Of a stretch of DNA of 64,000 bases, positions 9,827-32,798 are shown piece after piece. Below the pieces are notes generated by a model. It saw only the letters and a program-made list of their open reading frames with translations. It was not told the origin of the DNA and did no database searches. Numbering within the stretch: the first letter of the stretch is position 1; each line of letters starts with the position of its first letter. The translations under genes were made by a program, and so were the position numbers. Origin of the DNA: an uncultured Candidatus Saccharibacteria bacterium. GTDB lineage: Bacteria > Patescibacteriota > Minisyncoccia > Phycocordibacterales > DATDWN01. The stretch is from positions 888-64,887 of the forward strand of contig CAZPGQ010000003.1 in assembly GCA_964586695.1 (NCBI GenBank). Direction: 5' to 3'.

Positions 9827-9945
9827 TTCATAATCTGGATGAAATTCAAGGCGGAATGAAAAAATGCGAGGAGCCTTACTATAACGTAAGGTGACGAGAA
9901 TTTTTGATATTCCAACGCAGAAGTTCGCCAGATTTGGAATTTTAC
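9827..9945 (+). repeat. Copy A of a ~110 nt structured repeat element (conserved ~75 nt core within a covarying closing stem, U-tracts on both sides)
   Basis: Core ttcaaggcggaatgaaaaaatgcgaggagccttact...gtaaggtgacgagaatttttga.attccaacg is near-identical to 32700-32772. It is flanked by ttcataatctgg / ccagatttggaa, which pair with each other. Confidence 0.5.
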
Positions 9946-11411
9946 TTCGTTTCGTCCCAGGAGATGGTTTGATATTGATCTGAAGTCAGCGGAAAGCTCG
10001 GTGGAGGTCCATACAGCAAGTTTGCATCATATATAATGTCTCGTTCGTCGTAACCAGTACCGTCTGTATAGGCAAAACCATATCTACCGTTTGATCCTAT
10101 CATTCCATAAAGAGTGAGTTTTGTTCTCTGGTAAGCAGTTCCACAGCTAGAATTATAGTAGTATCTTCCAGCACGACCGTTTTGAGCCACAAGAGCTGCA
10201 TCAATTCTCAATGTGTCCAAACTAGAAAGACCGACATTTATGTTTCCTTGTGAGATTAGTGACAACACATCCTGACCACTGTAGTTTGTATACAAAAGAT
10301 TGTTGTTTACAGTGATGTTTGGTCTTGTTGCTGCATTGTCTGGGAATCTACCGTTTGCAACCGTTATACGTGCACTGTTTATCTGACCCTCTACCCACAA
10401 ATGATCCTCTACAAAGATTAGGCCGTTAACAGGATTTGCATAGTTGCCAATAAGAGTTTGATTTCCATTTCCAGAAGTTCTTATACTCCATGTACCCCAA
10501 CCGGTTTGGTTTTGAACATTACTACAGCCATTTGGTGCAGAAAGTAGGTTATTAACTCTATACAAGTCATAAGTATCGTTTGTTTTAAATACAATTCGAT
10601 AACCTTGAGCACCTGAACTTGGGATGTATTTTCCAGCTGACTGCGCATTGGTTTTTATTTGTGACAAATCTGTCGTCATACCAACAAAATCGACTGCAGG
10701 CACAGGAAATTGTCTGCCAGATTCAAAAACATCTATTCTATTTTGGAGAGTAGAAGGTGGAGCCTCTAACGCACGAAAAGTGTCGCTTATATTACCCCCA
10801 GGCAAAACAACGTGAGTATGAACACCAAACTCATCGTTACCTGTGTGGTCTGGATCATTGTATTTATCCTTTGCGCTGGTAATTATATTGTGAGCTAAAC
10901 CATCAAAACGAATTCCTCCATTAGAATGAATAGGCCCGAAAACTTCTGTTCCCTGTCCAAAACGCATATCTGTGTTCGCAACCACTGCAAATTTTGCTAA
11001 AGAGGGCTTTGCCAACTGAACAGATATGACTCTTGATATTGTAGGATCAGAATCCACCTTTCCTGTTGATTTGATTTTTACCAAAGTAAAACCAAGAGCT
11101 GGAGGGGTTATCTCAAGAGAAAATGTACCTATCTTGATTCCATCTTTGTCATAAAAATCGTGAACATAAGGTCCAGGTGTTGTAGTTGCGTCAGTAAAAT
11201 CAGTTGGACTATGTGCTAAATGCCATCTATAGTAGTCTATCCCTGCTTCTGCTATCTGTAGTGCTTGTTCTCTTTTTAGACCAACCTTTGATGCTTTTAT
11301 ATTTATACCTGCCCAGGCAACAAGTGAACCAATCATCACAACAGAAATGGTTGCAAAAACCAAAGCTTGCACCAATATTGTCCCTGACTGTTTTTTGTTT
11401 TTTTTATTCAT
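9942..11411 (-). CDS. PilX-like type IV pilus minor component (N-terminal PilX_N-like TM segment)
   Basis: N-terminus QSGTILVQALVFATISVVMIGSLVAWAGI resembles the PilX N-terminal domain; large Gly/Asn-rich extracellular part; lies in the pilus operon. Confidence 0.45.
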   Translation of the reverse strand: MNKKNKKQSGTILVQALVFATISVVMIGSLVAWAGINIKASKVGLKREQALQIAEAGIDYYRWHLAHSPTDFTDATTTPGPYVHDFYDKDGIKIGTFSLEITPPALGFTLVKIKSTGKVDSDPTISRVISVQLAKPSLAKFAVVANTDMRFGQGTEVFGPIHSNGGIRFDGLAHNIITSAKDKYNDPDHTGNDEFGVHTHVVLPGGNISDTFRALEAPPSTLQNRIDVFESGRQFPVPAVDFVGMTTDLSQIKTNAQSAGKYIPSSGAQGYRIVFKTNDTYDLYRVNNLLSAPNGCSNVQNQTGWGTWSIRTSGNGNQTLIGNYANPVNGLIFVEDHLWVEGQINSARITVANGRFPDNAATRPNITVNNNLLYTNYSGQDVLSLISQGNINVGLSSLDTLRIDAALVAQNGRAGRYYYNSSCGTAYQRTKLTLYGMIGSNGRYGFAYTDGTGYDERDIIYDANLLYGPPPSFPLTSDQYQTISWDETK

Positions 11412-12031
11412 TAAAGATTATCCTTAAGATTACGAACACTAACTTGAGATGTTGTGATTATACTTATAGGAGATCTGTTTGGATCTTTATCAATTATAAC
11501 AGCAACTTTAACCAAACGTATAGATGAGATATCGACAGGAACAGTAAGCGGTGATGATGTTCCAGCATAACTTGATGGATAGTATTGGAAAAGTGGCAAA
11601 GTAGAACTCGAAACAAAGCCGGAAATAATTGTAGAAAGTTTTTCTTGTGTATCGTCGTAGACTAAGGGACTTCCAGTTGGAGTCACAACTCCTCTTTTTA
11701 GGTTAGTTCCACTTATAAAATATCTAACCTTCTCTCTTATTCCGTTATTATCAACATCAGAATAAAAAATAAGATTTGATGGTGTCGCAGATGCAATAGC
11801 GTACGCTCCCAAAGCACTTGGACCTGCCTCTCGTAATTCTGTAACAATAATTTTAACAACATGTCTTGAATCTATTTCTGCATTTAAGTTTCCCTGCAAA
11901 ACATAGTTGAGAGAGAAGATGTCTCTTGCAAAAGAGCTTATCAATAATGATATAAGCAAAAATATTGAAACTCCTATAATAGTCTCTACAAAAGTAAAAC
12001 CTCCCTTTCTGTTGTTCTTTATATTTTTCAT
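11411..12031 (-). CDS. Type IV pseudopilin with a prepilin-type N-terminal cleavage/methylation domain
   Basis: KGGFTFVETIIGVSIFLL: class III signal with the G/FTxxE motif. Confidence 0.6.
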   Translation of the reverse strand: MKNIKNNRKGGFTFVETIIGVSIFLLISLLISSFARDIFSLNYVLQGNLNAEIDSRHVVKIIVTELREAGPSALGAYAIASATPSNLIFYSDVDNNGIREKVRYFISGTNLKRGVVTPTGSPLVYDDTQEKLSTIISGFVSSSTLPLFQYYPSSYAGTSSPLTVPVDISSIRLVKVAVIIDKDPNRSPISIITTSQVSVRNLKDNL

Positions 12032-12032
12032 A

Positions 12033-13841
12033 TTAACTAGCTACTAAAGTAACTTCTATTGACTGCCACGATGTATTCAATGGAACATTTATATCCTGAC
12101 TTTGATAACCAGCTTTAGAAAGGTGTAGCATATAGTCACCTGAAGGTAAGCCCTGGTACGAAACTTGTCCTGGAGGAGTACAGAGAGTTGTAAATGTAAA
12201 AGAAATATCTGAAATATTTGGGGTAAAAGCATCTATCGCTGTATCAAAGAATATTTTATACCGTAGGTAACGATTCCCGTTATTAATAGAATTTATATTT
12301 TGATTTGCAACAGTGTAGTAAGTGCCTGCAGTTCCATCTGGTCCTGCAAAATTCCAAGTTGCACCGTCATTGTTTGTAGCTATTTGAACACGTATATCTG
12401 GAGTTCCTGTCTGTATTGGTTGTGCTGTTGGGTTCCAAAATAGTTGTTGGAAGTTAGAAGCTGAACCAGTATCAAATGATGACGATGTTATAACCCCAGA
12501 TAAAACGTAACTTCCTAAAATATTTTTCAACTGAATATCACCAACAGGATCAGAATTTTCTATGTTACCGTCAGAAGAAAGGTACATTGTTGGATCAGTC
12601 GAAGTTGCCTGACCTCCCCCACCAGACCAGTCAGTCTGGCCCATAAAACCTTGTCCTGTTATTTTTGTAACATCAACAGCTCCCCCATTTTCAAGTCTTG
12701 CGGTTACTCCTGATAATGGCAGGCCAGTAAGACCGTCTTTTACTGTAACGAGTAGTGTTCGAGGATTTTTTGGTGAAACTACAAGCTGAACACTTTGATT
12801 ACTGTTTGGTGCTATAGTCACAGGTGATATTGGATTTATCCCTATTAAGTCATACAAAGCATCTATATTTGCAAAAGAATAAATATCCCATTCTATATTG
12901 GCCAAAGTAAGCAAACCACTACCATTTGTTGATTGGTTCTGACTATATTTTAATAAACTAGGTGTACCTATAAGTTTTGAGCCTGATAGTGAAAAGTCCA
13001 TCGAGCCAACAGGAGAACACACATCATCTACTGAACTAATATTAAATGTACTAAGCCTATCGATAACAAAACTTATCTGTGTTACTTGTTGTAAAACTAC
13101 AGTGGCATGAGGTTTTACTGGGTTCGGATTTCCAACACTCACAACAAGCGTTTGATCTGTAGAATAACCAGACTTTGTAACCGTTATTTCATAAGCATTC
13201 ACTCCTGGAGGAGCATCAACCACCTGGAGAAGTCCGCTTGCATTTGTAACATCATCAATAACTATGTTAGGAATAACTTGATTATTTTCTATATGAACAT
13301 TTGCATCAGGAACAGGATTTCCATTTGCATCAAACACTTTTACGAACAATGCTCCGTTTGTAGAAGCCGTCTCAAGATTCTTTGGGGCTACTCTTGTAGT
13401 AACAATCATTTCTGGGAAATTCACCCTGCAGTCAGTACAGGTTATATCTATCTCAACTAATTTAAAATCCGCAGGAGAAAGATCGTTTGGCGAACCTCCC
13501 AAAGTTCCATCGAACGGATCATCAACATTTCTAACCGTTGTAGTTACAGTATATGTGTATTTATCTCTATTTATTGTCTGAATATGATCAAGTTTACCTC
13601 TAGGAATACCACTCAGAATACCCACGTCAGAATAAGGAAGGTTTCTAACAATTTCTAGTTGCTCATTTATAATACTTATTGCTTCTATCTTTGCGCGACT
13701 AGCATACACAACGTCAAAAATACCGCGATATGCGTTGTAAACAGAAATGATTATAAAAGCAAAAACTGCTACACCAACAATCAGCTCAACAAATGTAAAA
13801 CCTTTATTTGTTTTTATTTTGCTTTTATTATTTTTAAACAT
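12033..13841 (-). CDS. Large type IV pseudopilin / pilus-associated protein with a prepilin-type N-terminus
   Basis: NKGFTFVELIVGVAVFAFII: G/FTFVE prepilin motif, followed by a ~570 aa beta-rich extracellular region. Confidence 0.55.
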   Translation of the reverse strand: MFKNNKSKIKTNKGFTFVELIVGVAVFAFIIISVYNAYRGIFDVVYASRAKIEAISIINEQLEIVRNLPYSDVGILSGIPRGKLDHIQTINRDKYTYTVTTTVRNVDDPFDGTLGGSPNDLSPADFKLVEIDITCTDCRVNFPEMIVTTRVAPKNLETASTNGALFVKVFDANGNPVPDANVHIENNQVIPNIVIDDVTNASGLLQVVDAPPGVNAYEITVTKSGYSTDQTLVVSVGNPNPVKPHATVVLQQVTQISFVIDRLSTFNISSVDDVCSPVGSMDFSLSGSKLIGTPSLLKYSQNQSTNGSGLLTLANIEWDIYSFANIDALYDLIGINPISPVTIAPNSNQSVQLVVSPKNPRTLLVTVKDGLTGLPLSGVTARLENGGAVDVTKITGQGFMGQTDWSGGGGQATSTDPTMYLSSDGNIENSDPVGDIQLKNILGSYVLSGVITSSSFDTGSASNFQQLFWNPTAQPIQTGTPDIRVQIATNNDGATWNFAGPDGTAGTYYTVANQNINSINNGNRYLRYKIFFDTAIDAFTPNISDISFTFTTLCTPPGQVSYQGLPSGDYMLHLSKAGYQSQDINVPLNTSWQSIEVTLVAS

Positions 13842-13847
13842 TTTATT

Positions 13848-15068
13848 TTAGAGAGCATCCGCAAGACTGTATGTAGGACCCAACATAGAGATAGCAAAGA
13901 ATCCTACAGCAACACCGATAAAAATCATAAGTATAGGTTCTATTATCGATGACATATCCTTTGTCTTTTGATCCACTTCGTCTTCATAAAAAACAGCTAC
14001 AGAAAGAAGCATCTCCCCTATCTTTCCCGTTTCTTCTCCCACAGAAACCATCTCTCCCACGAATATCGGGTATAGATCATTGTATCTAGAAAACACTCCG
14101 GATATTTGATCTCCTCTTTGAATTGTTGACTGGATCTCATCCAAAACTTCTTTATAGTAATGGTTTTGAATAACATCTTTTGTTACCCCAATAGCCACAA
14201 CAATATCTACTCCAGAAGAAAGAAGAGAGGAAAGTGTTCTTGCTGTTCTGGCTGAATTAACCTGCTTTACGATTTCACCTATAACTGGCACTTTTATTGC
14301 AACAGTGTCTACAACTTTCTTTCCTGATGCAGTTCTTATCCACCAAACAAAACCAGTTACAAACAGAGCTGTGCCAACAATAATATATGGGAAATAATTT
14401 TTTAGCGCGTCACTAACAGCAATTATCATTCTAGTAGAAAGTGGTAGTTTTACACCTAGACCAACAAAAGTAGATGTCAGAGTTGGCACCATGTAGACCA
14501 TCATCAGAACTCCAATAACAGCCATCAATGAAAAAATAACAGCTGGGTACATCAGAGCACCTCTTATCTTTCTCGTTAATTGATACGACTTCTCCATCTG
14601 AATACCAACATTGTTTAATGCCATTGATAGATTTCCAGACTCTTCACCAGCTCTAACCATAGAAACAAACAGTGTAGAAAAGACATCTGGATAAGCTTTC
14701 ATTGAGTCACTAAATGTATTTCCTTTTGAGATTGAGTCACCCAATTCACCTATAATTTTTTTGAATTTGCCTTTAGACTGTCTCTCTATAATAGAAAGGC
14801 CTCTGGTTACAGGAAGTCCTGCATCAATCATCTTTGAAAGATTTTTTGCAAAAGTGATTTTGTCGTGAGCTTTTACTCTACTTAAAAAAGGTAGGTCTAT
14901 GTTACTGCTAAAACTGATTCCCTTTTCTGCACCAACTTCTTCGACAGATACAACAGTGCTACCGTCCTGTTTTATAGAATGATACAAAGCAAACTTGTCC
15001 TTTGCCTCCATCTCTCCCTCTTTCACCTTTCCTTCAGGATCTAAAATTTTATATTTAAATATAGCCAT
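13848..15068 (-). CDS. pilC: Type IV pilus assembly platform protein PilC (GspF family)
   Basis: Two GspF-type repeats and three TM segments; sits directly downstream of pilB. Confidence 0.85.
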   Translation of the reverse strand: MAIFKYKILDPEGKVKEGEMEAKDKFALYHSIKQDGSTVVSVEEVGAEKGISFSSNIDLPFLSRVKAHDKITFAKNLSKMIDAGLPVTRGLSIIERQSKGKFKKIIGELGDSISKGNTFSDSMKAYPDVFSTLFVSMVRAGEESGNLSMALNNVGIQMEKSYQLTRKIRGALMYPAVIFSLMAVIGVLMMVYMVPTLTSTFVGLGVKLPLSTRMIIAVSDALKNYFPYIIVGTALFVTGFVWWIRTASGKKVVDTVAIKVPVIGEIVKQVNSARTARTLSSLLSSGVDIVVAIGVTKDVIQNHYYKEVLDEIQSTIQRGDQISGVFSRYNDLYPIFVGEMVSVGEETGKIGEMLLSVAVFYEDEVDQKTKDMSSIIEPILMIFIGVAVGFFAISMLGPTYSLADAL

Positions 15069-15069
15069 A

Positions 15070-16821: not shown

Positions 16822-17078
16822 AAGAGTAATTTGTTTTTAAATTATATCACGTGCTCACAAATAATTTCTATTTAAATATGTTAATAAGAATTTCAGTTAT
16901 CTTTTTTACAAAAGAAATTGCATCTTAGAATGTTAAAAATGGACTATTTGACAAATAAATTGGTTACTGCTATTATTATTGTATTGAAGTTCGCCTCACG
17001 GCGGGCCATTTTTTTACCAGATTTTCAAGAGATAGGGTAAAATAATAAATAGATTAAAAATTTGTAACAATAAACAAT

Positions 17079-18218: not shown

Positions 18219-18227
18219 ATAATAATT

Positions 18228-18256
18228 AAATAAAAACCCGAGATTATCTCGGGTTT
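18228..18256. terminator. Bidirectional terminator between nusA and the pyrophosphatase gene
   Basis: aaaaacccgagattatctcgggtttttattt. Confidence 0.55.
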
Positions 18257-18260
18257 TTAT

Positions 18261-19193
18261 TTATGGAAGTTTTAGCGCTGGGGCAATCTGCTTCTTTCTA
18301 GATAGAATTCCTGGAAGGACCTTTGTATCACCATCAATTGAGACACCGAAAGATGTTTCTACTAATTTTTTAGTAAAATCGTTATACGTGAGAACAATTG
18401 CCTCTTCCTTAAAAATATCAATAACAAAAACTAGAACATCATCTGTATCTGGTTCTTGAGACAGTATCTCAGCTATAGCAGATACAAGACCTGACTTTCT
18501 TTCCAATATTGGTGCTGTATCAGTAGTTTCCACCACAGAAATTCTCACTGTTTTATCTCCAACATCAAATTTCTTACTATCGAGATGAAGTAGTCCGATG
18601 TCTGTAAAGTCTGAAACATCTGATTTTGCCTTAAACATCTCATTTGCATATGACTGAATGTCTACATCAAGCTGTTTTGCCAACTTTTCTGCAATATATT
18701 TGTCGTGAGCTGTTGTTGTTGGTGATCTGAAAGCTAAAGTGTCAGATAAAATACATGAAAGCATTATTCCAGCAATATTGTTAGGTAAACTATTGGCAAC
18801 ATCACCGATCAAATCATGGATAACAGAAGCAGTTGATGCCAAAGGTCTCAATGTAACTTCAATTGGGCCTTTTGTCTCCAACCCTCCAAATAACTTGTGA
18901 TGGTCTATTATTTTTAAAATATTTGCGTCCAAAATGTTTGGAAATAGTTCCTGAGGGTTATTTGTGTCCACAATAACAACATCATCGCCAGCATCTATAG
19001 AAGACAAAAGATCTGGTTCAGAAAAACCCCATCTATTTAACACAAAAGATGTTTCTTTATTCAACGCACCAAGCACATACGGTCTAGATTCTACTCCCCC
19101 GTGTGTATTCATATACCAAGACCACAGGATCGCACACCCTGTTGCATCTGTATCTGGAGACATGTGTGAAAATACTTTTATCATGATTAGCAT
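18261..19193 (-). CDS. ppaC: Manganese-dependent inorganic pyrophosphatase (family II, DHH-DHHA2)
   Basis: HxxPDxDAxG N-terminal motif, DHH (IIDHHKL), and the C-terminal SRKKQ signature of family II PPases. Confidence 0.8.
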   Translation of the reverse strand: MLIMIKVFSHMSPDTDATGCAILWSWYMNTHGGVESRPYVLGALNKETSFVLNRWGFSEPDLLSSIDAGDDVVIVDTNNPQELFPNILDANILKIIDHHKLFGGLETKGPIEVTLRPLASTASVIHDLIGDVANSLPNNIAGIMLSCILSDTLAFRSPTTTAHDKYIAEKLAKQLDVDIQSYANEMFKAKSDVSDFTDIGLLHLDSKKFDVGDKTVRISVVETTDTAPILERKSGLVSAIAEILSQEPDTDDVLVFVIDIFKEEAIVLTYNDFTKKLVETSFGVSIDGDTKVLPGILSRKKQIAPALKLP

Positions 19194-23136: not shown

Positions 23137-23901
23137 CTAAGCTTTTATATCACTCGATAAATTCCAAATTTCATCAAAAACGGCACGCATCATCTTGGCG
23201 TGCTGTTTTGATTGAATTAAAACAGCACTATTCTCCTTTTTAGGAGCGATGTATAACGTCTTATCATCATAAATAAAAACAGTTGTTTCAAAGCTATTAT
23301 GCATAGATACAGGTAGTTGCCTTAAATCGGACTCGGAATAATATTTCCTCAAAACCTCTTTATTTGGAATGTCTTCCCATAAAGCCTTAGTCTTAAGACC
23401 TCTTTTCAGTTTTTCTCCTACATATTCATTTATAAAGTCCTCTCCAAGTTCGTGAAAAAAATTGTTTCCAGGGACAATTGACCGAATAATTTTCTCCTTT
23501 CCATAAAGAGTAAAAAATATCGCTGATTTTATCGATATAAGATTATCAAAATTAGAAACAATAGTCGCATTTTCTCTCTTTTTTAAAGGGTAGTACTTCT
23601 TAATTTTCTCCGCTCTATCTAATAATTGGTTTTGCTTCCTAATATTGATATTTATTAGCTCTAAAAGCTTATCCAATGGTTCCAGCTGGAATTTATTACC
23701 ATAATCTTTACCTGTTTTACTAACCAACCCTCTTTTTTCCAATGATGCCAATGAATAATACACTGTGGGTCTTTTTTCATTAGTAATCTTCATTATTTCT
23801 TTAACAGAAATTACACCATCAAGTAGTGCGGAATATACGGATATTTCCGCCTTTGGAAGACCTATTTCTTCCAAAATTATTTTTAGCTCTTTTTTGTCCA
23901 T
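23137..23901 (-). CDS. TrmB-family (winged helix) transcriptional regulator
   Basis: N-terminal HTH LPKAEISVYSALLDGVISVKEIMKITNEKRPTVYYSLASLEKRGLV, typical of TrmB-like regulators. Confidence 0.55.
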   Translation of the reverse strand: MDKKELKIILEEIGLPKAEISVYSALLDGVISVKEIMKITNEKRPTVYYSLASLEKRGLVSKTGKDYGNKFQLEPLDKLLELININIRKQNQLLDRAEKIKKYYPLKKRENATIVSNFDNLISIKSAIFFTLYGKEKIIRSIVPGNNFFHELGEDFINEYVGEKLKRGLKTKALWEDIPNKEVLRKYYSESDLRQLPVSMHNSFETTVFIYDDKTLYIAPKKENSAVLIQSKQHAKMMRAVFDEIWNLSSDIKA

Positions 23902-23995
23902 AATTTATAGTTGTATAGTTATTATTATACATTATTAAACAATTCTTTCAATTAACCTACTATAAACATAGATAGTTCTTTGAAAGGAGAAACCA

Positions 23996-24400
23996 ATGAG
24001 TGCAGAAGATTTTGTTTTCACCCTGATAAACATCTGGTTTGGACACTTTCTTGCCGACTTTTTCCTTCAGACAACGGAAATGGCGGACAACAAGTTTGTG
24101 CAGACAAGAAATGGAACCTACTGGTGCACGATTCATGTAATCGTATACACCTTAACCATAATGCTATTCCTTGAACAGAAAGATGTTGTTGCCTTCTTAG
24201 GAATCTTCATTCCCCACTGGATTATCGACAGATACTCCTTGGCATACAAGTGGATGAAGATTACAGGCGGTTCAGCAATGCTTTCTGGAAATAAGGAGGT
24301 AGCAAGTCACCCGTTTGGTCCAGTTGTTTACGTTGTAATGGACCAGATGCTTCACCTTTTCTCTCTGTATCTTTTGTTGAGATACATATCGGTCTTCTAG
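23996..24400 (+). CDS. DUF3307-like small polytopic membrane protein
   Basis: aaaggag RBS; three TM helices. The resemblance to the DUF3307 family is from memory only. Confidence 0.45.
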   Translation: MSAEDFVFTLINIWFGHFLADFFLQTTEMADNKFVQTRNGTYWCTIHVIVYTLTIMLFLEQKDVVAFLGIFIPHWIIDRYSLAYKWMKITGGSAMLSGNKEVASHPFGPVVYVVMDQMLHLFSLYLLLRYISVF

Positions 24401-24410
24401 GAGGTATGAG

Positions 24411-24791
24411 ATGGGACTTGGATTATTTCGTGGCTCATTTTGTTCGAATGAAAGCGATTTCCAACAAATTAAGCCTCAACGACGTGCAAAGGAACAGACA
24501 CCAATTTCACAAGAACTGGTACTTGGGAACCCAAATCCCAACAACTTTGAGATCACCCGACTTGAAAAAGTACTCCGTTTTGTTGTGGTGATGATCAAAT
24601 ACCCAGATTGTAAGAACTACGAAGGAAACAAGATCCTCGTTTTTGAGGGGGTACCAACAAAGACCATTCTAAACCAGAAATCAATTGATCCACACTTCTG
24701 CAATTCCAAAACTCATCCTTCTCCTGTCGCAAGGTTTGAACCAACAGAAAAAGGTTGGGGTTATGCTGTTAAATTCTGCCAAACAGCATAA
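24411..24791 (+). CDS. Hypothetical protein (moderately GC-elevated), translationally coupled to the upstream gene
   Basis: aggagg RBS 6 nt upstream; 126 aa, cysteine-containing, no known motif; followed by the terminator agaggcgtcgattgttcggcgcctct. Confidence 0.4.
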   Translation: MGLGLFRGSFCSNESDFQQIKPQRRAKEQTPISQELVLGNPNPNNFEITRLEKVLRFVVVMIKYPDCKNYEGNKILVFEGVPTKTILNQKSIDPHFCNSKTHPSPVARFEPTEKGWGYAVKFCQTA

Positions 24792-25036
24792 AACGAAGAG
24801 GCGTCGATTGTTCGGCGCCTCTATTCTTATTTTTGACTTATTATCGAGTTTCTTATATAGTGAGGTTATTATTGATTAAATAATAACGGTTGTTTTTTGT
24901 TTTTCCCGTCATTTCCTGTTTATATCCAGACAATCAGAAATCCAAATTACCTTAAATATCTTAGAAAATTTAGAATTCATTCCCTACAAATACTAGAAAT
25001 TTCAAAAAGAGAGACGAAGGACGGCCAGCATAAAAT

Positions 25037-26569: not shown

Positions 26570-26710
26570 AATTAGACTCGCTCGATTTTAATGCAACTTA
26601 TTACAGACTCTGTCAATCTATTGCGCTAAAAAAGCCTTAATATATAATACTCTTATAGTAGATAAGGTTGGTCATAAGGTTTAGAATTATCATTAGTTAA
26701 TTTTATCATT

Positions 26711-26983
26711 ATGAATAAAGCATCAATAGTAGACGCAGTTCACGCGAAACTAGGTGGTACAAAAGTTCAAGCAGAGGAAGTTGTAGATACAGTTATTGAT
26801 TCTATCGTTTCTACTCTTAAAAAGGGTGGCGAAGTTTCAATCGCGGGTCTAGGAATCTTCTCTACAAAGACTAGAGCTGCAAGACAAGCTCGAAATCCTC
26901 GAACAGGAGCTACTATCTCAGTACCTTCAATGAAGGTTCCAAAGTTCAGAGCAGCTAAGGCTTTGAAGGAAGCAGTGAAATAG
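26711..26983 (+). CDS. hup: DNA-binding protein HU
   Basis: Typical HU length and arm motif RNPRTGATISVPSMKVPKFRAAKALK. Confidence 0.85.
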   Translation: MNKASIVDAVHAKLGGTKVQAEEVVDTVIDSIVSTLKKGGEVSIAGLGIFSTKTRAARQARNPRTGATISVPSMKVPKFRAAKALKEAVK

Positions 26984-27157
26984 TCGCTTGGTCTTTTTTG
27001 CGAATTTCTTTGTTGTTCGTTACGTTTGCTCCACGCGCAGTATACTTATACAGCTTGGTCACAAGCCTCACTCACAACTTCGAACTTCATCAAAAAATCC
27101 TCAAGCTTGCGTTCTCTCGAGAGAATATCAAAAAAGAGCCTCATGGCTCTTTTTTGA

Positions 27158-27649
27158 TTATTTATACTTTTCTAACATTTCTAATGCTCTTTTCATTAGA
27201 TGATCTCCTATTTCTCCCCATTTAACATATTCTTTGTAATCTTGAGGGTCTATTAGTTTTATTTCCAAAATATCTCCATCAGGGTCTGACTCAAATTCCC
27301 CATACGGTTCAACAATAGCAACCATTCTAGCTTGTCTTGATAGTGTTTTTTCTTTTTCAAACCATACATCTTGATAACCTATATATTCCATAGACAAAAC
27401 TCTCATATTCGATTCTTCTTTAATTTCTCTTTCTGCAGCCTCAGTATACGTTTCTCCTTTTTCAATAGCCCCGCCAGGTGGAGTCCACTCACCTCTCCCA
27501 TTTTTTACAACAACCAATTTACCCTCACAAAAACAAAAACAGTGTACTCCATGCAAGGTAGATTCACCTAAGTTTTGGCCAGGATCTTCATCTTCATAAG
27601 TTACATGATATGTTTCTCCTCTATTTTCAATTTGAGTTTTTATTTGCAT
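27158..27649 (-). CDS. NUDIX hydrolase
   Basis: Nudix box GGAIEKGETYTEAAEREIKEESN. Confidence 0.8.
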   Translation of the reverse strand: MQIKTQIENRGETYHVTYEDEDPGQNLGESTLHGVHCFCFCEGKLVVVKNGRGEWTPPGGAIEKGETYTEAAEREIKEESNMRVLSMEYIGYQDVWFEKEKTLSRQARMVAIVEPYGEFESDPDGDILEIKLIDPQDYKEYVKWGEIGDHLMKRALEMLEKYK

Positions 27650-27675
27650 GTAAAAATACTAACATGATTAATATA

Positions 27676-27800
27676 TGCGGGATAGCGGATGTCTCACTTC
27701 TTGGAAACCGACGGTTTTCCAACGGAAGCAAAGCTTCCTGCCTTCCTGCACGGGAAACCAGACAGGTTTCCCGACCCCTTCCTTGGTTCGACTCCGCTCC
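27676..27800 (+). ncRNA. Candidate tRNA-like structured small RNA (unknown family)
   Basis: Putative promoter TTGCAT-18-TAATAT immediately upstream. An ~10 bp closing stem (gggatagcgga / tccgctccc) encloses three perfect hairpins (ggaaacc.., ggaagc aaa gcttcc, gggaaacc agaca ggtttccc) and a T-loop-like GGTTCGACTCC. It is followed by the terminator hairpin at 27811-27835. Confidence 0.3.
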
Positions 27801-27840
27801 CACAAAACAAAAAGCCCCCTAAAGGGCCTTTTGTGTTTTG

Positions 27841-27911
27841 TGCGGGATAGCGGAGTCGAACCGCTCTCCACAGTTTGGAAAACTGTTGTTTTACCGATAA
27901 ACTAATCCCGC
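27841..27911 (-). tRNA. tRNA-Gly (anticodon UCC)
   Basis: Manual cloverleaf of the minus-strand sequence GCGGGAT TA GTTT ATCGGTA AAAC A ACAGT TTTCCAA ACTGT GGAG AGCGG TTCGACT CCGCT ATCCCGC A. Confidence 0.8.
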
Positions 27912-27982
27912 AATACAAGCTATAGTATCAGAAAATAAATACTCTATCAAATTGTATTAGTGGCAAGTGATATAATACTGTT

Positions 27983-29083
27983 ATGTTTCTAAAAACCGCC
28001 ATTTCATTCATATTTGCTCATTTGCTTCTTTTAAGTGGAACAAACACCAAAGTTTATACTGCTCCAGATGTAAAACCTACGCAAAAAGCCAGTTCTACTA
28101 TTGCGATAATAGCTACAACAACAAAACCAATAATCAAAGTTGCAAAAACGTCTACTACAACTCCAAAAACAAAAGTGATACCAGTAAAAACTGTTTCTGA
28201 AACACCAAAAGTAGAAACTAAACCAGAACCAGCCCCAGACTTTGTTGCAATAAACGAATTTGCACGAAAAGCTACAGTAAATATTCTCTGTACAGCAAAA
28301 GGTGGTGAATTGTCCCCTATTTCTGGTACAGGTGCGATAGTTGGACCGAGCGGACTTATACTGACCAATGCACACATTGGACAATATCTGCTTTTGAGAA
28401 ACTATAGAGAAAAAGATTTTATCCAGTGTGTAGCAAGAACAGGTAGCCCCGCTTATCCAAAGTACAATATCGAATTAGTTTACATCTCCCCCACTTGGGT
28501 TTCGGAGAATAAAACCCAACTAAAGGACCAGAATCCACAAGGGACAGGAGAAAATGATTTTGCCTTTCTACGAATAACAGGAATGGTTGATGGATCAAAA
28601 ACTCCAGACAGTTTTCCTTTTGTGACTATGAATATCCGCGAAGCGATAAACGTGAATGAACCAGTTTTGCTTTCATCATATCCAGCTGGGTTCCTTGGTG
28701 GACTTTCTATACTTCAAAATTTAAATGTAACTACTGCTATTACAAACATACAGGACGTTTTTACATTTAAAGACGGAACTATAGATATAATCTCTGTTGG
28801 AGGCACAGTTGTGTCACAAAAAGGCTCTTCTGGCGGACTTGTAGTTGATAAAAATTCAACTCTTATTGGTGTTATATCAACTAGCTCAAATGGTGACACT
28901 ACAAGTAGTAGAGGCCTTAATGCCATTACTTTAGGTTACATAAATAGAGCAATACAAAAGGAGCTAGGCTTTGGATTTAAAGAATTTCTATCACAGACAC
29001 CGGAAAATTTTGCGAAAACATTTGCAAGTACTACAGCTCCCCTACTAACAAAAATAATTACAGACGAACTAAACAAACAATAG
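27983..29083 (+). CDS. Secreted trypsin-like (S1 family) serine peptidase with a Thr/Lys/Pro-rich linker
   Basis: Signal/TM N-terminus; catalytic His context ILTNAHIG and Ser context GSSGGLVVD. Confidence 0.65.
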   Translation: MFLKTAISFIFAHLLLLSGTNTKVYTAPDVKPTQKASSTIAIIATTTKPIIKVAKTSTTTPKTKVIPVKTVSETPKVETKPEPAPDFVAINEFARKATVNILCTAKGGELSPISGTGAIVGPSGLILTNAHIGQYLLLRNYREKDFIQCVARTGSPAYPKYNIELVYISPTWVSENKTQLKDQNPQGTGENDFAFLRITGMVDGSKTPDSFPFVTMNIREAINVNEPVLLSSYPAGFLGGLSILQNLNVTTAITNIQDVFTFKDGTIDIISVGGTVVSQKGSSGGLVVDKNSTLIGVISTSSNGDTTSSRGLNAITLGYINRAIQKELGFGFKEFLSQTPENFAKTFASTTAPLLTKIITDELNKQ

Positions 29084-29386
29084 TTATTTATTTGCAAACT
29101 CAGCAGAAATCTGGACTATCATATCAAAATTATCTTCTTTTACTGCCTTGTTAGGCTTTTCAAAACCACACTTAACACATTTGTGTTTGATAATATATTC
29201 TTTCCCCTTTTTCTCTATGCCAATAGGCTTCATAAAGCCTCCACAAGTGTTTAATCTATCTCCAGGGTTAATGTCTACATGTTTTGAATATAAACATTGT
29301 GGGCAATGATTTGTATATCCATCCCCTTCTACAGAAAAACCACAATGTTCACAAACAAAATCTTCAGTTTTACGGATAAATGTCAT
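29084..29386 (-). CDS. RNHCP domain zinc-ribbon protein
   Basis: CEHCGF...YTNHCPQCL...KCVKCGF: RNHCP motif and four Cys pairs. Confidence 0.55.
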   Translation of the reverse strand: MTFIRKTEDFVCEHCGFSVEGDGYTNHCPQCLYSKHVDINPGDRLNTCGGFMKPIGIEKKGKEYIIKHKCVKCGFEKPNKAVKEDNFDMIVQISAEFANK

Positions 29387-29387
29387 C

Positions 29388-29981
29388 TTACTTTTTAATG
29401 GCTATAAAATTCAGATAATTCTTATTATTAGGTCTGAATTCCTGAAAAAATACTTCTTCAAATCCAAATTTCAAAAATAATTCTCTTATTTCCTCCTTGG
29501 TATAAAAACTAAACCATCTTTCCATATTTATTCCAGAACTTTCTTTATATAGTTCTTTCTCTCCCTCTATCAAGCCTAGCCCCAAAACTCCCCCAGCATT
29601 CAAGACCCGCGATATTTCTTTAAAAGCAGATTCTACTTCTGATTTTGGAATGTGTAAAAGAGATGTATACGACCACACACCGCCAAAACTTCCATTTTCA
29701 AAAGGAAGATCAAGAAAATCCCCTTCTATAGCAACTAGTCCTCTTTCCTTTGCTATTTTAACCATTTCTGTAGAGGCATCTAGGCAAACAACATCAAGTC
29801 CACTATTTTTTAAAAGTAGTCCATCCCTACCAGGCCCAGCACCTATATCTAAAATTTTCCCAGAAACTAAATTCACAAAATTATCCAAAATACTTCTGGG
29901 AAATCTATCCCAGAAATCTACAGTTTCTTCATCATATTCCTTAGCCATCTTATTGTAAGTATTTATGGTTTTTATATCCAT
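29388..29981 (-). CDS. Class I SAM-dependent methyltransferase
   Basis: Motif I ILDIGAGPGRDG and an acidic motif II (VVCLDAS). Confidence 0.75.
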   Translation of the reverse strand: MDIKTINTYNKMAKEYDEETVDFWDRFPRSILDNFVNLVSGKILDIGAGPGRDGLLLKNSGLDVVCLDASTEMVKIAKERGLVAIEGDFLDLPFENGSFGGVWSYTSLLHIPKSEVESAFKEISRVLNAGGVLGLGLIEGEKELYKESSGINMERWFSFYTKEEIRELFLKFGFEEVFFQEFRPNNKNYLNFIAIKK

Positions 29982-30008
29982 TTCTTAAATACAATAAAGA
30001 TTAATCTG

Positions 30009-30081
30009 TCGGAGTGCTGGGATTCGAACCCAGAGTCGCCTGTTCCCAAAACAGGAATGTTAGCCGTTACACTACACTCCG
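30009..30081 (-). tRNA. tRNA-Pro (anticodon UGG)
   Basis: Minus strand CGGAGTG TA GTGT AACGGCTA ACAT T CCTGT TTTGGGA ACAGG CGACT CTGGG TTCGAAT CCCAG CACTCCG A. Confidence 0.8.
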
Positions 30082-30139
30082 AATACCGACAAATACAAGT
30101 AAGAGTCTAACATAAATAACTCAAATAACAAACAATATC

Positions 30140-30586
30140 CTAAAGAACAATGTCCTCTAACAAAAAGACACGACTTATTCTTTTGGACATATCTATATGG
30201 ACGGTAGCTATATCAAACTGCCAGTCTGTTTCATCTGAAACATCCCTTTCTAGCAGATATGACTGGATCGTCCTCCCCAGTCTCTGAAGCTTCCAAGGAT
30301 GGACATTATCCTCTGCTCTATAGGAATCGTTGGATGTTACATGTGTAACATCTGACAAAACCCTTGAAACAGCCTTTACTTCAATAAAGTGTAGCTGCTT
30401 ACCTTTCCTAGCTATAACATCTATCTCTCCCCACTTCTTCAGATAGTTTCTCTCTATAACCTTATAGCCATTACTTTCTAGCCATTTACAAGCAGAATCC
30501 TCCCCTATCTGGCCGATTTTTTGTTTCTCAGTTGGTTCCCTGGAGAAGTTCTTGTTATACATAACATAATTATATACTTGGAACAC
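30140..30586 (-). CDS. YraN/UPF0102 family endonuclease
   Basis: GEDSACKWLESNGYKVIERNY...GEIDVIA...LHFIEVKA matches the UPF0102 pattern. Confidence 0.65.
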   Translation of the reverse strand: MFQVYNYVMYNKNFSREPTEKQKIGQIGEDSACKWLESNGYKVIERNYLKKWGEIDVIARKGKQLHFIEVKAVSRVLSDVTHVTSNDSYRAEDNVHPWKLQRLGRTIQSYLLERDVSDETDWQFDIATVHIDMSKRISRVFLLEDIVL

Positions 30587-30778
30587 CAGAGTTACACATG
30601 TAACATATATCTATCATTTCACGTGAAACATTTTCTATTATTCTAAAAAACAGACATAAAATGGACATTTGTCTGTAAAAATACCCTTATTTAGAGCCAC
30701 ATCTCGGATAGATTTTGTAAAATGTCTTAAAAATTGTCAGTGGTCAAAGACCTGTCTTTAATACACATGTCCCCAGAC

Positions 30779-30797
30779 TTATCCACAGTTTTCCACA
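30779..30797 (+). promoter_or_regulatory. Tandem DnaA boxes (TTATCCACA and TTTTCCACA) outside oriC
   Basis: cttatccacagttttccacaaagg: a perfect consensus box plus a one-mismatch box, the same arrangement as in the dnaA-dnaN spacer. Confidence 0.4.
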
Positions 30798-30868
30798 AAG
30801 GACAGGGGATAAATAGGGTACTTTTAATTTTAAAAACTTTAGTATATGATGATATACGTTCAGTTATT

Positions 30869-30939
30869 GCGGGCATGGTTAAGTGGTATAACAGGTCCTT
30901 GCCAAGGACCAGTCGGGGTTTCGATTACCCCTGCCCGCA
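30869..30939 (+). tRNA. tRNA-Gly (anticodon GCC)
   Basis: GCGGGCA TG GTT AAGTGGTAT AAC A GGTCC TTGCCAA GGACC AGTC GGGGT TTCGATT ACCCC TGCCCGC A. Confidence 0.8.
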
Positions 30940-30991
30940 CAAAGAACATAGACAATAGTCTATAAAACTAGTATTGTATTAAAAGATTAAT

Positions 30992-31066
30992 GCACCCGTA
31001 GCTCAACGGATAGAGTACCGGTCTTCGGAACCGTGGATGTGGGTTCGATTCCTGCCGGGTGCACCA
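30992..31066 (+). tRNA. tRNA-Arg (anticodon UCG), CCA encoded
   Basis: GCACCCG TA GCTC AACGGATA GAGT A CCGGT CTTCGGA ACCGT GGAT GTGGG TTCGATT CCTGC CGGGTGC A CCA. One C-U mismatch at 27:43 and two GU pairs in the T stem. The acceptor resembles E. coli tRNA-Arg. Confidence 0.7.
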
Positions 31067-31212
31067 TTAATATAGCTATAAAACACGAAGTGTTTTGATC
31101 GTTGGCAGGAATCGAAGCCTGATTGAGATATTTTACGAGTTTACGAAGTAAAATATCCAATTGGGGTACTGATCCTGTAAGGATCGATTCCGTTAGTATA
31201 TAATTCACTTAC

Positions 31213-32679
31213 ATGAATTTTCCTATCCCAAAAGAGGTTTCATATGTAACAAAACAGCTAGAAAATGCAGGTTTTGAGGCTTTTGTCGTGGGTGGATGTG
31301 TAAGAGACCTTATTCTAAACAAGGCACCAAAAGACTGGGATGTAACAACAAATGCAACCCCAGAGCAGATTATCGCTTTATTTCCAAAAACTTTTTATGA
31401 AAACACCTTTGGAACTGTCGGCGTTGTGAACGAGGAAACTACTGAACCAACCTTAGTAGTAATCGAAGTCACTCCATACAGAATAGAAGGGGAGTATTCT
31501 GACAATCGACATCCAGATACTGTTATTTTTAGCCAAAAAATAGAGGATGATCTAAAAAGAAGAGACTTCACAATGAATTCTCTTGCTTATTCTGTATCAA
31601 AAAAAGAAATTATTGATTTATTTGATGGTGAGAGAGATATAAAAGACAAAGTAATTCGAACTGTAGGGGATTCTGTAAGCAGATTTAAGGAAGATGGACT
31701 CAGAATACTACGGGCTGTGCGTTTTTCTGCTGAACTTGGCTTCGAAATAGAAGCAGGGACTGAAAAAGCCATATTTGAAAACTCAGAACTACTGAAAAAT
31801 ATTTCTCTAGAGAGAATACGAGACGAATTTACAAAGATGATAATGTCGGCAAGGCCCATGGATGGCTTAATTGCAATGAAAAAAATGAGTCTTTTGTCGT
31901 ACATAATTCCTGAATTGAAAAATACTATAGGTGTAGAACAAAATAGGGCACACTCATACGATGTATGGGAGCATTTACTTAGATCTCTACAGGGAGCTGC
32001 AGATAAAAATTATCCTTTGGACCTGCGTTTAGCGGCTTTGTTGCACGATATTTCAAAACCAGAGTCACGAAGATGGGGAACAGAACAAAATACTTGGACT
32101 TTCTATGGACATGAAGTACTTGGAGCTCGTGTTGCAAAGAAAATTCTTACAAATTTAAAATATCCGACGAAAATAATAGAAAAAGTTACAAAAATGATTC
32201 GTTGGCATATGTTCTTTTCTGATACAGAGCAAATAACGCTCTCAGCGGTCCGTAGAATGATTGTAAATGTTGGACGAGAGAATATATGGGATTTGATGAA
32301 TCTACGCATATGCGACCGTATAGGGACTGGTAGACCCAAAGAAGACCCGTACCGCCTCCGAAAATATCATGCAATGATAGAAGAAGCTCTGCGAGACCCG
32401 ATTTCTGTAGGAATGTTAAAGATAGATGGTAAAAAAATAATGGATGTTACAGAAATTACTCCTGGACCACGCATTGGTTACACTCTACACGCACTCTTAG
32501 AGGAAGTTTTGGAAGATCCAAAGAAAAATACTGCAGAATATCTAGAAGAAAGAGCGAAAACTCTTGTAAATTTACCTATAGAGGAGCTGGAATCACTAGG
32601 AGAAAAGGGAAAACAGTCAAAAGAAGAAGCTGATGAGGAGCAAATAAAGAAAATCCGCTCTAGCCATCACGTTAAGTAA
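31213..32679 (+). CDS. cca: CCA-adding enzyme / tRNA nucleotidyltransferase with a C-terminal HD domain
   Basis: GGCVRDLIL...DWDV polymerase-beta head motif; HD domain (LLHDISK). Confidence 0.85.
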   Translation: MNFPIPKEVSYVTKQLENAGFEAFVVGGCVRDLILNKAPKDWDVTTNATPEQIIALFPKTFYENTFGTVGVVNEETTEPTLVVIEVTPYRIEGEYSDNRHPDTVIFSQKIEDDLKRRDFTMNSLAYSVSKKEIIDLFDGERDIKDKVIRTVGDSVSRFKEDGLRILRAVRFSAELGFEIEAGTEKAIFENSELLKNISLERIRDEFTKMIMSARPMDGLIAMKKMSLLSYIIPELKNTIGVEQNRAHSYDVWEHLLRSLQGAADKNYPLDLRLAALLHDISKPESRRWGTEQNTWTFYGHEVLGARVAKKILTNLKYPTKIIEKVTKMIRWHMFFSDTEQITLSAVRRMIVNVGRENIWDLMNLRICDRIGTGRPKEDPYRLRKYHAMIEEALRDPISVGMLKIDGKKIMDVTEITPGPRIGYTLHALLEEVLEDPKKNTAEYLEERAKTLVNLPIEELESLGEKGKQSKEEADEEQIKKIRSSHHVK

Positions 32680-32681
32680 AA

Positions 32682-32798
32682 CCTCAGATTTGAGTATAGT
32701 TCAAGGCGGAATGAAAAAATACGAGGAGCCTTACTTAGAGGTAAGGTGACGAGAATTTTTGAAATTCCAACGAAGAAATATGCCAAATCTGAGGTTTT
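32682..32798 (+). repeat. Copy B of the ~110 nt structured repeat element
   Basis: Same core as 9845-9917. It is flanked by cctcagatttg / caaatctgagg (a perfect 11-bp pair), with a U-tract on both strands. It lies immediately after the cca stop codon. Confidence 0.5.

Follow-up and report, generated by a model that had tools for sequence, protein, structure and literature searches.

The window, i.e., the whole 64-kb stretch of DNA that was analysed, contains four copies of a repeat folding into a long hairpin, each lying at or near the stop codon of a gene (Table 1). In agreement with the original prediction, copy A is located between the stop codon of a pilX-like gene and the start of tpiA, antisense to both genes, and copy B directly follows cca; the last three nucleotides of copy A are the reverse complement of the pilX-like stop codon, and copy B, in the sense orientation, starts at the cca stop codon TAA (32677–32679), which falls inside the helix. 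Beyond this pair, two divergent copies were found, namely, copy C, in the sense orientation 13 nt past the stop codon (33305–33307) of an xth-like gene, and copy D, in the antisense orientation 3 nt from the stop codon of the HU gene (26981–26983). Model R1 scores copies A, B, and C at 126.8, 120.5, and 45.1 bits, respectively (E = 3e-7 for copy C), and copy D has 22.9 bits (E = 0.012) in the covariance-model search with filters off. For the cca protein of the window, the nearest proteins come from Zambryskibacteria, Paceibacterota, and Minisyncoccia MAGs.

Table 1. Repeat copies in the window and the sequence elements discussed in the text
Feature	Position	Strand	Description
Copy A	9821..9944	+	124-nt rod hairpin, core type I (double tandem G.A)
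Copy B	32676..32800	+	125-nt rod hairpin, core type I
Copy C	33165..33291	-	Divergent, 127 nt, single tandem G.A beside apical hairpin (CGAG/UGAG)
Copy D	26986..27106	-	Divergent, 121 nt, core type II (UGAC/GGAG single tandem G.A)
Apical module, copy A	9867..9898	+	CGAGGAG-[CCTTAC loop GTAAGG]-TGACGAG
Apical module, copy B	32722..32753	+	Motif as in copy A, loop differs
AAGGCGG block, 5' arm of copy A	9846..9852	+	Also in ERIC consensus
CCAACGCA block, 3' arm of copy A	9912-9919		Partner of AAGGCGG
Stop codon TAA of pilX-like gene	9942..9944	-	Last three paired bases of copy A

Copies A and B are 86% identical over ~140 nt, and their interior is nearly the same from TTCAAGGCGG to ATTCCAACG, as had been described; within the window, a 30-nt core pattern matches these two copies only (no matches in 100 shuffles). 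The inner hairpin CCTTAC/GTAAGG, with loops differing between the copies, and the closing stem, which differs in sequence while complementarity is kept, are likewise present as predicted. The two copies had been placed correctly, but their extents had to be corrected to the full helices listed in Table 1. TTTTAC, originally placed after the closing stem, is not a free U-tract: TTTTA forms the last part of the helix and is paired with TAAAA of the 5' end. The supposed swapping of the arms was an over-reading: these outer arms share ancestry, and the changes that separate them are compensatory; the outer-arm classes of copies A and B recur in other genomes. The near-invariance of the core among the retrieved homologues is partly due to ascertainment, since the search pattern demanded that core; copies found by the model only carry other cores.

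The suggested search for further copies demonstrated that the family is not confined to two members and has dozens elsewhere: about 40 copies were collected from the window, one MAG, and ~25 metagenome contigs, mostly Paceibacteria-like, with local density reaching 4–5 copies per 12 kb. The two repeats are members of a large mobile-hairpin family in tiny-genome groundwater bacteria. TA is found at symmetric positions of both helix ends in ~27 of 42 copies (counted by hand from the termini), and the 3' terminal run reads GTTCTA, not a U-tract, in most copies. Neither solo arms nor REP singlets were found, except for one degenerate copy.

Every copy is an imperfect palindrome and folds into a rod hairpin of ~125 nt (118–129 nt in all low-GC copies; 146 and 149 nt, with longer helices, in the gammaproteobacterial copies L007 and L017), the fold Z-scores being -5.9 for copy A and -9.5 for copy B. 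The rod comprises one or two tandem sheared G.A pairs flanking a covarying apical hairpin, and an internal-loop module AAGGCGG/CCAACGCA; in copy A, the helix of the apical module is continuous and reads C-G, G.A, A.G, G-C, G.A, A.G, G.U, followed by the hairpin. A kink-turn motif was considered and rejected, as, according to the sequences and folds, the G.A pairs are in symmetric 2x2 contexts with Watson–Crick or G.U flanks and there is no 3-nt bulge. In the alignment of 36 homologues (A4), compensatory change is observed in 34 out of 36 pairs, and pairing cells account for 93.7%, compared with 34–53% in slid-partner controls. G-U/U-G cells (177) greatly outnumber A-C/C-A cells (10), so the fold is strand-specific; the purine strand is the more stable one in 35 out of 36 copies, usually by 10–20 kcal/mol, whatever the gene orientation. 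Thus, the earlier inference from covariation to a selected single-strand structure holds, given the compensated pairs and the strand-specific G-U excess. At the same time, a simple function as an RNA hairpin in mRNA does not explain the G-U signature, because the best-folding strand is mostly antisense to the mRNA.

The copies are situated at 3' ends of genes, and a stop codon typically falls within the final turn of the helix. The stop codon of an opposite-strand ORF lies from -5 to +9 nt from the 3' end of the helix in 27 out of 42 copies, and copies sitting between co-directional genes are antisense in about 20 cases out of 22. Copies are found in 3' UTRs in both orientations, and one is in a 5' UTR. 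As copies A and D are opposite in absolute orientation and alike relative to genes, it is unlikely that orientation follows from replication direction alone.

The site of copy B is empty in relatives L033 and L035, and the site of copy C, in L033, L034, and L035; L033 has copies after clpP and in the HU 5' UTR that are absent from the window, the L016:3522 copy is missing in L031, and no copies were found in 21 and 16 kb of syntenic DNA of L034 and L035, respectively. The pilX–tpiA and HU-stop sites are filled even in genomes with proteins only 60–70% identical, and different genomes have different subfamilies there, e.g., the HU-stop site of L033 carries a subfamily other than that of copy D. 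Filled and empty sites in relatives, together with subfamilies differing at one site, therefore indicate that the family is mobile or turns over. The filled/empty pairs, which have ~80% identity and intergenic flanks that do not align cleanly, are compatible with insertion at the TA of a stop codon or in an A/T run. Orthologous copies are 91–94% conserved, compared with 77–79% for the flanking coding DNA, which argues for selection in place or gene conversion and against plain selfish decay. Of the options offered originally, a MITE-like repeat is the best supported one (dispersed copies, TA termini, filled/empty sites, and subfamily turnover at one site). A terminator with a functional insert fits poorly, since the T-run is paired in the helix and separate canonical terminators often follow the element. 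An intrinsic terminator was rejected as well: the ~60-bp helix is rich in A+T, its TTTTA or TTCTA pairs with the 5' end, and separate canonical terminators adjoin several copies.

Comparison with Rfam yielded no matching family: in the scan of the window with Rfam 15, only four tRNAs reach the gathering scores, and E-value scans of copies A, B, and C produced only weak C/D snoRNA-like noise. REPINs are similar in being extragenic ~100-nt long hairpins with high copy number, compensatory changes, and a proposed single-stranded intermediate (PMC3116915), but the arms of the repeats studied here lack REP units and GTAG or CGTC tags, the ends are TA, and no RAYT was seen; no Y1 transposase is encoded by the genes called in the 21-kb region around cca and in L033–L036. 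Correia/NEMIS of Neisseria and RUP of pneumococcus share the size of ~100–150 bp and the TA termini; they duplicate TA, form stable transcript hairpins, and affect neighbouring mRNAs (PMC2229807). No sequence similarity to them was noticed, and their conserved part is the terminal repeats, matching IS630-type elements (shown for RUP), whereas in the Patescibacteria repeats conservation across subfamilies is seen in internal modules. A repeat of ~155 bp, bcr1 of the Bacillus cereus group, is likewise mobile, with compensatory changes maintaining the RNA-level structure, and is transcribed (PMC3184786). Its fold, however, consists of two stem-loops, and it generates 5-bp direct repeats and has an unrelated sequence.

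The claim that the element resembles no known family did not survive the comparison with ERIC (enterobacterial repetitive intergenic consensus, also named IRU or RU-1). A covariance model, R2, built from 11 ERIC/IRU repeats only (E. coli, Salmonella, Klebsiella, Citrobacter, Yersinia, and Serratia), picks out the window copies specifically: when the window was searched in full with the filters off, the four top-ranking matches are, in order, copies B, A, C, and D (31.1 bits, E = 1e-5; 26.9 bits, E = 1.3e-4; 22.6 bits, E = 0.0018; and 12.3 bits, E = 0.93, respectively), all four matches being full-length and on the correct strand. R2 recovers at least 11 further copies in related loci, with E-values down to 1e-7 (40.8 bits for L030, 36.3 for L003, 35.9 for L010, 35.6 for L016, and 32.1 for L002, plus others), and does not detect several subfamilies or the gammaproteobacterial copies L007 and L017. 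In the reverse test, the Patescibacteria model gives 8.9 bits for E. coli ERIC (E = 1.3), not significant, though in register; hence, the ERIC similarity is significant in one direction only. No significant nhmmer matches were obtained between the Patescibacteria copies and ERIC, and the pairwise shuffle test is moderately significant, the observed scores being reached by 5/300 and 2/300 shuffles.

The blocks AAGGCGG, AGGAGC(C)TTAC, GTAAG(G)TGAC, and CCAACGCA have common order and spacing in ERIC and in the Patescibacteria copies, and GGAGC(C)TTAC...GTAAG(G)TGAC of the copy A apical module is also present in the centre of ERIC. ERIC is 127 bp long, carries terminal inverted repeats, ends in TA, duplicates the target site, and forms a long stem-loop (PMC2229807). 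The Patescibacteria copies are close to it in length (118–129 nt) and likewise form a single long stem-loop by pairing of both ends, have TA termini, are intergenic at gene 3' ends, sometimes over the stop codon, in a preferred orientation, and have filled and empty sites. The strand asymmetry of the fold is shared as well (39 G-U vs. 10 A-C in ERICs, with the purine strand more stable in 10 out of 11), and one E. coli ERIC copy, antisense with its end at the ybhI stop codon, has the same layout as the Patescibacteria copies. The differences are that the Patescibacteria copies are AT-rich with outer arms unrelated in sequence, most of those retrieved contain an additional tandem G.A, with an A/U stem in place of CCCCA/TGGGG of ERIC, their local density is much higher, and the hosts are Patescibacteria, not Gammaproteobacteria. 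The window copies fall outside the host range described for ERIC, Enterobacterales/Vibrionaceae (PMC10969869), which is a matter of distribution, not of mechanism.

Taking all this into account, we consider it probable that an ERIC/IRU-type MITE, a non-autonomous element, has colonised a Paceibacteria-like (Patescibacteria, CPR) genome and that the repeats are its copies. They would constitute a new family of ERIC-like MITEs outside Gammaproteobacteria; the kind of element is known, and the phylum is new for it. A transposase acting in trans would insert the element at TA, either within or next to a stop codon or an A/T run; we know of no transposase mobilising ERIC, and none with ends matching the repeats was found here. 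The strand-specific fold may reflect a single-stranded stage of importance for the element itself, as the fold is the same in both orientations relative to the host genes. ERICs lie near or over stop codons in a preferred orientation and are co-transcribed with flanking genes; the orientation rule for the ERICs of Yersinia is reported by De Gregorio et al. (2005). The inserted element would similarly be co-transcribed in the 3' UTR of the upstream gene, and a ribosome terminating on the overlapped stop codon could open the hairpin base, as proposed for the Yersinia ERICs, thereby altering RNase access and changing the stability of the upstream mRNA; the effect of ERIC on upstream mRNA depends on orientation and arises as an RNase E site is exposed in a ribosome-dependent way (PMC2229807, PMC10969869). 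Orientations forming a very stable purine-strand hairpin between co-directional genes would be selected against.

The repeats might instead be host cis-acting RNA or DNA elements held by selection and not currently mobile, e.g., 3'-UTR stabilisers or one-directional terminators blocking antisense transcription into the upstream gene, with the resemblance to MITEs due to an old origin. The higher conservation of orthologous copies than of neighbouring coding DNA, the occupancy of the pilX–tpiA and HU-stop sites in distant genomes, the strong purifying and compensatory selection on the structure, and the purine-strand hairpin, directed against the upstream gene in the manner of an antisense terminator, all conform to this explanation; still, we find it unlikely, as these conserved sites are filled by different subfamilies in different genomes, sites are empty in close relatives, with L034 and L035 copy-free over the syntenic DNA, the T-run is paired in the helix and mostly replaced by GTTCTA, and canonical bidirectional terminators often lie between the element and any antisense promoter. 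Independent transcription of small RNAs from the purine-rich strand, also among the original options, seems very improbable. It agrees with the strongly covarying, strand-specific structure with conserved non-canonical modules and with a sigma-70-like promoter seen by eye upstream of copy A (TTGTAC-17-TATAAA), but the 36 copies of alignment A4 share no conserved promoter motif in their upstream sequences, room for a promoter is sometimes lacking, the 5' end directly adjoins a terminator in L008, L028, and L025, the copies are mostly antisense to both neighbours, occur in UTRs of either kind and, in 3' UTRs, in both orientations, the sites are polymorphic between relatives, and no Rfam family matches.

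The strand-specific fold, observed regardless of gene orientation, could also be that of single-stranded DNA hairpins moved by an HUH transposase of the tyrosine type, in the way that RAYT mobilises REPINs or in that of IS200/IS605-derived elements; the G-T wobble and G.A signature would then reflect recognition of single-stranded DNA, not RNA. Tandem sheared G.A pairs and G-T wobbles are stable in DNA too, and several loci have no room for a promoter of the folding strand. REPINs are comparable extragenic hairpins of ~100 nt with compensatory changes (PMC3116915). Nevertheless, we deem such mobilisation rather improbable, given that the arms contain no REP-like short palindromes and no GTAG/CGTC tags, solo arms are absent save the one degenerate copy, the TA termini better fit DDE (IS630/Tc1-like) MITEs, the genes called in L033–L035 and in the 21 kb surrounding cca include no Y1 transposase, and copies A and D have opposite absolute orientations and the same orientation relative to genes.

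ERIC repeats, described as restricted to Enterobacteriaceae and Vibrionaceae, are used everywhere in strain typing (ERIC-PCR), and their movement and function are still unsettled; to our knowledge, the partner of ERIC has been missing since 1990–91. With an abundant and diversified relative of it in the ultra-small genomes of Patescibacteria, the range of ERIC becomes wider, the internal modules under true constraint are revealed, and streamlined genomes are seen to tolerate, or use, repeats of this sort at the ends of genes. Tentatively, ERIC-type elements may even form a cross-phylum superfamily, in which the conserved single-strand modules, namely, the apex with tandem G.A and the AAGGCGG/CCAACGCA loop, would be recognised by the partner; if so, this partner would be widely distributed and be either the enzyme that mobilises the elements or a factor of the host binding RNA or DNA. 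The gene complement of Patescibacteria amounts to only some hundreds, and their small genomes are a place to search for the mobilising or binding protein; as some relatives carry many copies and others none, correlation of presence and absence could identify it. For genome annotation, the family accounts for a class of conserved hairpins between genes, which might otherwise be annotated as new small RNAs or terminators.

Two repeat copies are present where the original prediction had placed them; when aligned, they are 86% identical over ~140 nt, with a near-identical interior running from TTCAAGGCGG to ATTCCAACG. A 30-nt core pattern matches the window at the sites of copies A and B only, and has no matches in 100 dinucleotide shuffles. 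The plus strand folds at -38.5 kcal/mol in copy A (z = -5.9; reverse complement, -26.1 kcal/mol) and at -47.6 kcal/mol in copy B (z = -9.5; reverse complement, -33.8 kcal/mol). The motif TTTTAC, pointed out earlier, is no free U-tract, TTTTA being paired with TAAAA of the 5′ end. A small peptide encoded from the core ATG (MKKCEEPYYNVR in copy A) was rejected by eye as not conserved, because its frame stops earlier in the homologous locus L002.

The genome-collection scan yielded one true homologue (L002, from a Candidatus Paceibacterota MAG) and one chance match, and the metagenome scan yielded 30 loci, ~25 of them true homologues, some with two copies. The chance pattern matches, L001 from the former scan and L013, L018, L019, L021, and L027 from the latter, lack the flanking arms, and some of them apparently lie inside coding sequence. 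No matches to the core pattern were found in the scanned viral contigs. The covariance model R1, built from 29 copies, detected more divergent copies without the core search pattern, two of them within the window (copies C and D in the table). Copies may be locally dense, e.g., three per 13 kb in L016 and four to five per 12 kb in L031. The window falls within the contig JACCDT010945141.1, and the closest relatives of its cca protein are Zambryskibacteria, Paceibacterota, and Minisyncoccia MAG proteins. The earlier impression that the repeat belongs to no known family holds for Rfam 15, where both gathering and E-value scans gave no matching family, but not for ERICs, a model of which detects the copies (below).

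Copies of the element in the window and the conserved cca–xth intergenic stretch. R1, model of 29 copies of the family; R2, model of 11 ERICs, whose E-values are rough because its calibration was shortened.
Feature	Position	Strand	R1	R2
Copy A, full helix (folding)	9821-9944	+		rank 2, 26.9 bits, E 1.3e-4
Copy B, full helix (folding)	32676-32800	+		rank 1, 31.1 bits, E 1e-5
Copy C	33165-33291	-	45 bits, E 3e-7	rank 3, 22.6 bits, E 0.0018
Copy D	26986-27106	-	22.9 bits, E 0.012 (filters off)	rank 4, 12.3 bits, E 0.93
cca–xth conserved stretch	window 32801-33160; L033:11467-11822; L034:11485-11843; L035:6413-6757	- (window)

The fold is strongly supported by covariation, as had been proposed from the two copies: in the alignment of 36 copies, compensatory changes are seen at 34 of 36 pairs, and standard pairs occupy 93.7% of cells. 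When the partners are slid by 1–3 columns, 34–53% of cells pair, and none of 500 shuffles reached the observed values; the slid control is the fairer one, since the structure string came from the same alignment. In the same copies, 177 G-U/U-G cells are observed vs. 10 A-C/C-A cells, and in 35 of 36 it is the purine-rich strand that folds more stably, usually by 10–20 kcal/mol. Thus, one specific strand is selected to fold.

The rod is 118–129 nt long in every low-GC copy. The stem of the apical hairpin covaries and its loop is free; as read from the sequences, the hairpin is adjoined by one or two tandem G.A/A.G pairs, closed by G.U. The type I core is CGAGGAG...UGACGAG, its invariance among the retrieved loci being partly owed to the search pattern, and the alternatives are CGAG/UGAG or UGAC/GGAA. 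Outward of the apex lies a conserved internal-loop module, AAGGCGG with CCAACGCA, and the outer arms fall into a few classes that recur between metagenomes, the modules being combined variously. A kink-turn or C/D-box was rejected, as there is no 3-nt bulge and the weak snoRNA matches are noise; by eye, the motifs of the hammerhead, hairpin, and other ribozymes, integron attC sites, and SRP, 6S, and RNase P RNAs do not fit either.

The apical sequence GGAGC(C)TTAC...GTAAG(G)TGAC is similar to the ERIC centre, the source region of both ERIC-PCR primers. This 44-nt centre is present in every one of 5,426 E. coli genomes, at a median of 10 sites each. An E. coli ERIC copy (L039) of ~125 nt ends at the ybhI stop codon in antisense orientation, and its strands fold at -47.5 vs. 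-33.3 kcal/mol. The consensus of 11 ERICs from six enterobacterial genera and the Patescibacteria elements have four blocks in common, AAGGCGG, AGGAGC-TTAC, GTAAG-TGAC, and CCAACGCA, alike in order and spacing, and these ERICs have the same strand bias (39 G-U vs. 10 A-C cells). The model R2, built from these 11 ERICs alone and applied with filters off to the entire window, ranks the four copies as listed in the table, each matched end to end on the folding strand. R2 also detects L030 (40.8 bits), L003, L010, L016, L002, L012, L009, L020, L023, and L022. This ranking and the aligned blocks are specific.

The evidence for the similarity is one-directional. The Patescibacteria model scored the E. 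coli ERIC at 8.9 bits, though in register; nhmmer with the family HMM gave no significant match to an ERIC; and the pairwise shuffle test was moderately significant, the observed scores being reached by 5/300 and 2/300 shuffles. R2 misses some subfamilies and L007, which of the two GC-richer loci is the one scanned with filters off. Therefore, we call the family ERIC-like, that is, ERIC-related and not simply ERIC copies. L007 and L017 hold GC-richer copies (L017:3292-3424 and L007:160-293; 48–52% GC), which are 146–149 nt long with the same core CGAGGAG...TGACGAG and lie between apaG and apaH of thyA-folA-apaH-apaG-ksgA, antisense and 7–14 nt from the apaG stop. This context is typical of Gammaproteobacteria, to which the two loci probably belong, judging by gene order. 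BLAST against the 5,426 E. coli genomes matched neither the element nor the L017 copy. ERIC is described as a 127-bp element with terminal inverted repeats, a target-site duplication, TA termini, and a long stem-loop (PMC2229807, table 1), found in Enterobacteriaceae and Vibrionaceae (PMC10969869), also in Y. pestis and V. cholerae (PMC2267715), with 30 copies in E. coli K-12, 150 in Salmonella Typhimurium LT2, and 711 in Photorhabdus luminescens (PMC10969869).

Comparison of relatives points to turnover. Three loci, L033, L034, and L035, share synteny with the window and are 76–87% identical to it in nucleotide sequence. The copy B and copy C sites are empty in L033 and L035; in L034, the copy C site is empty and the copy B site has only a 29-nt simple hairpin, TAAAATCCTGGATTGAATCCAGGATTTTA (L034:11467-11500), right after the cca stop and exactly at the copy B position, which may represent an ordinary terminator, a footprint, or a minimal outer-arm relative. 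Conversely, the window lacks counterparts of the copies that L033 carries after clpP and within the 5′ UTR of HU; the ~1.7 kb of window positions 23137-24828, encoding a TrmB-like regulator, a DUF3307 protein, and a hypothetical protein, are missing from L033, which carries its clpP copy there. At the HU-stop site, the window and L033 carry different subfamilies. L016 and L031, ~80% identical, differ by one copy and have different subfamilies at the pilX–tpiA site. Copies occupy this site in at least six genomes with TpiA and Pgk proteins 60–66% identical to those of the window. From the filled and empty sites and the subfamily swaps, it follows that members of the family are acquired, lost, and replaced. 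Within a subfamily, orthologous copies are 91–94% identical vs. 77–79% for the flanking coding DNA; in place, the family is thus conserved or homogenised as well.

The insertion junctions are compatible with the TA of a stop codon or an A/T run, the intergenic flanks being too diverged for an exact target duplication to be read; a clean duplication was sought in near-identical strains, and the contigs with an identical cca protein are all filled at the same sites. A search with half-arm HMMs for a larger autonomous element with the same ends gave only a degenerate copy (L012:9041-9162, plus strand), which folds poorly (-20 kcal/mol) and retains only a recognisable 3′ arm (nhmmer E 1e-5); it is likely a decaying remnant. 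Directly beside the L002 copy, on the opposite strand, a weak R2 match (L002:4246-4376, plus strand; 19.8 bits, E 0.016) could represent another copy, inverted and decayed. L035 contains a large serine recombinase gene (L035:121-1782; Resolvase, Recombinase, and Zn_ribbon_recom domains) that is missing at the corresponding place in the window and L033.

The helix ends are mostly TA(A/G)A...T(Y)TA, and ~27 of 42 copies carry TA at each end. In 27 of 42, a stop codon on the opposite strand (ORFs of at least 70 codons) lies -5 to +9 nt from the helix 3′ end, most often at -2, where the final base pairs of the helix are made by the stop codon. The folding strand runs antisense to its neighbours in ~20 of the 22 copies located between co-directional genes, and the sense-oriented copies are mostly found between convergent genes. 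Copies A (after the pilX-like gene) and D (after HU) are of the common antisense type, and copies B (after cca) and C (after the xth-like gene) are of the rarer sense type. No conserved promoter was found upstream of the folding strand, and some loci have no room for one.

Since a separate canonical terminator lies beyond several copies in the gene direction, the element is usually within the 3′ UTR of the upstream gene and is not itself the terminator. Insertion into loops of pre-existing terminators was rejected, because the outer-arm classes are common to different genomes. Several copies are directly adjoined at their 5′ end by a short canonical bidirectional terminator (A-run, G+C hairpin, T-run), located at L008:5049-5075, at L028:471-497, and in the L025 and L023 flanks; the element with its terminator is 94% identical between L008 and L028, and the neighbouring genes are 77% identical. 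Orientation set by replication was also rejected: GC skew mostly tracks gene direction, and copies A and D break a replication-only rule. The cumulative GC skew has its minimum at ~30000-36000 of the window, with gene orientation switching nearby, which could mark a replication origin or merely the change in gene direction; DnaA boxes are not enriched in the window (25 vs. 19.6 expected).

The cca–xth intergenic region has a conserved ~350-nt stretch without an ORF in four genomes. On the minus strand, it ends with a conserved long hairpin and a T-run (32866 to 32800), and its internal hairpin GAGGTGCGCACCTC covaries; it has no Rfam match and resembles an ncRNA gene missed by annotation. At its 5′ edge lies a perfect DnaA box, TTATCCACA (33152-33160, minus strand), which is conserved in three of the four genomes.

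ERICs are co-transcribed with their neighbours, and their effect depends on orientation: translating ribosomes block folding of the hairpin, an RNase E site in the 3′ repeat is exposed, and the upstream mRNA is lowered (PMC2229807, PMC10969869). By analogy, the Patescibacteria copies would be non-autonomous elements inserted at gene ends and transcribed within 3′ UTRs, and, with the stop codon in the helix base, the terminating ribosome may control folding. Beyond this analogy, the G-U signature is always on the same strand of the element, whichever way it faces relative to the gene, and in most copies the folding strand is not the mRNA strand; hence, read most simply, the fold would serve propagation of the element itself or a partner shared by the copies. 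In that case, the orientation bias would be secondary, arising, e.g., from selection against having the highly stable hairpin of the purine-rich strand between co-directional genes. The element may also pass through a stage as single-stranded DNA, like REPINs (PMC3116915).

The literature searched contains no description of such MITEs in Patescibacteria. While elements of this type are well known, what is new is the host phylum, the double G.A core, the density, and the subfamily diversity.
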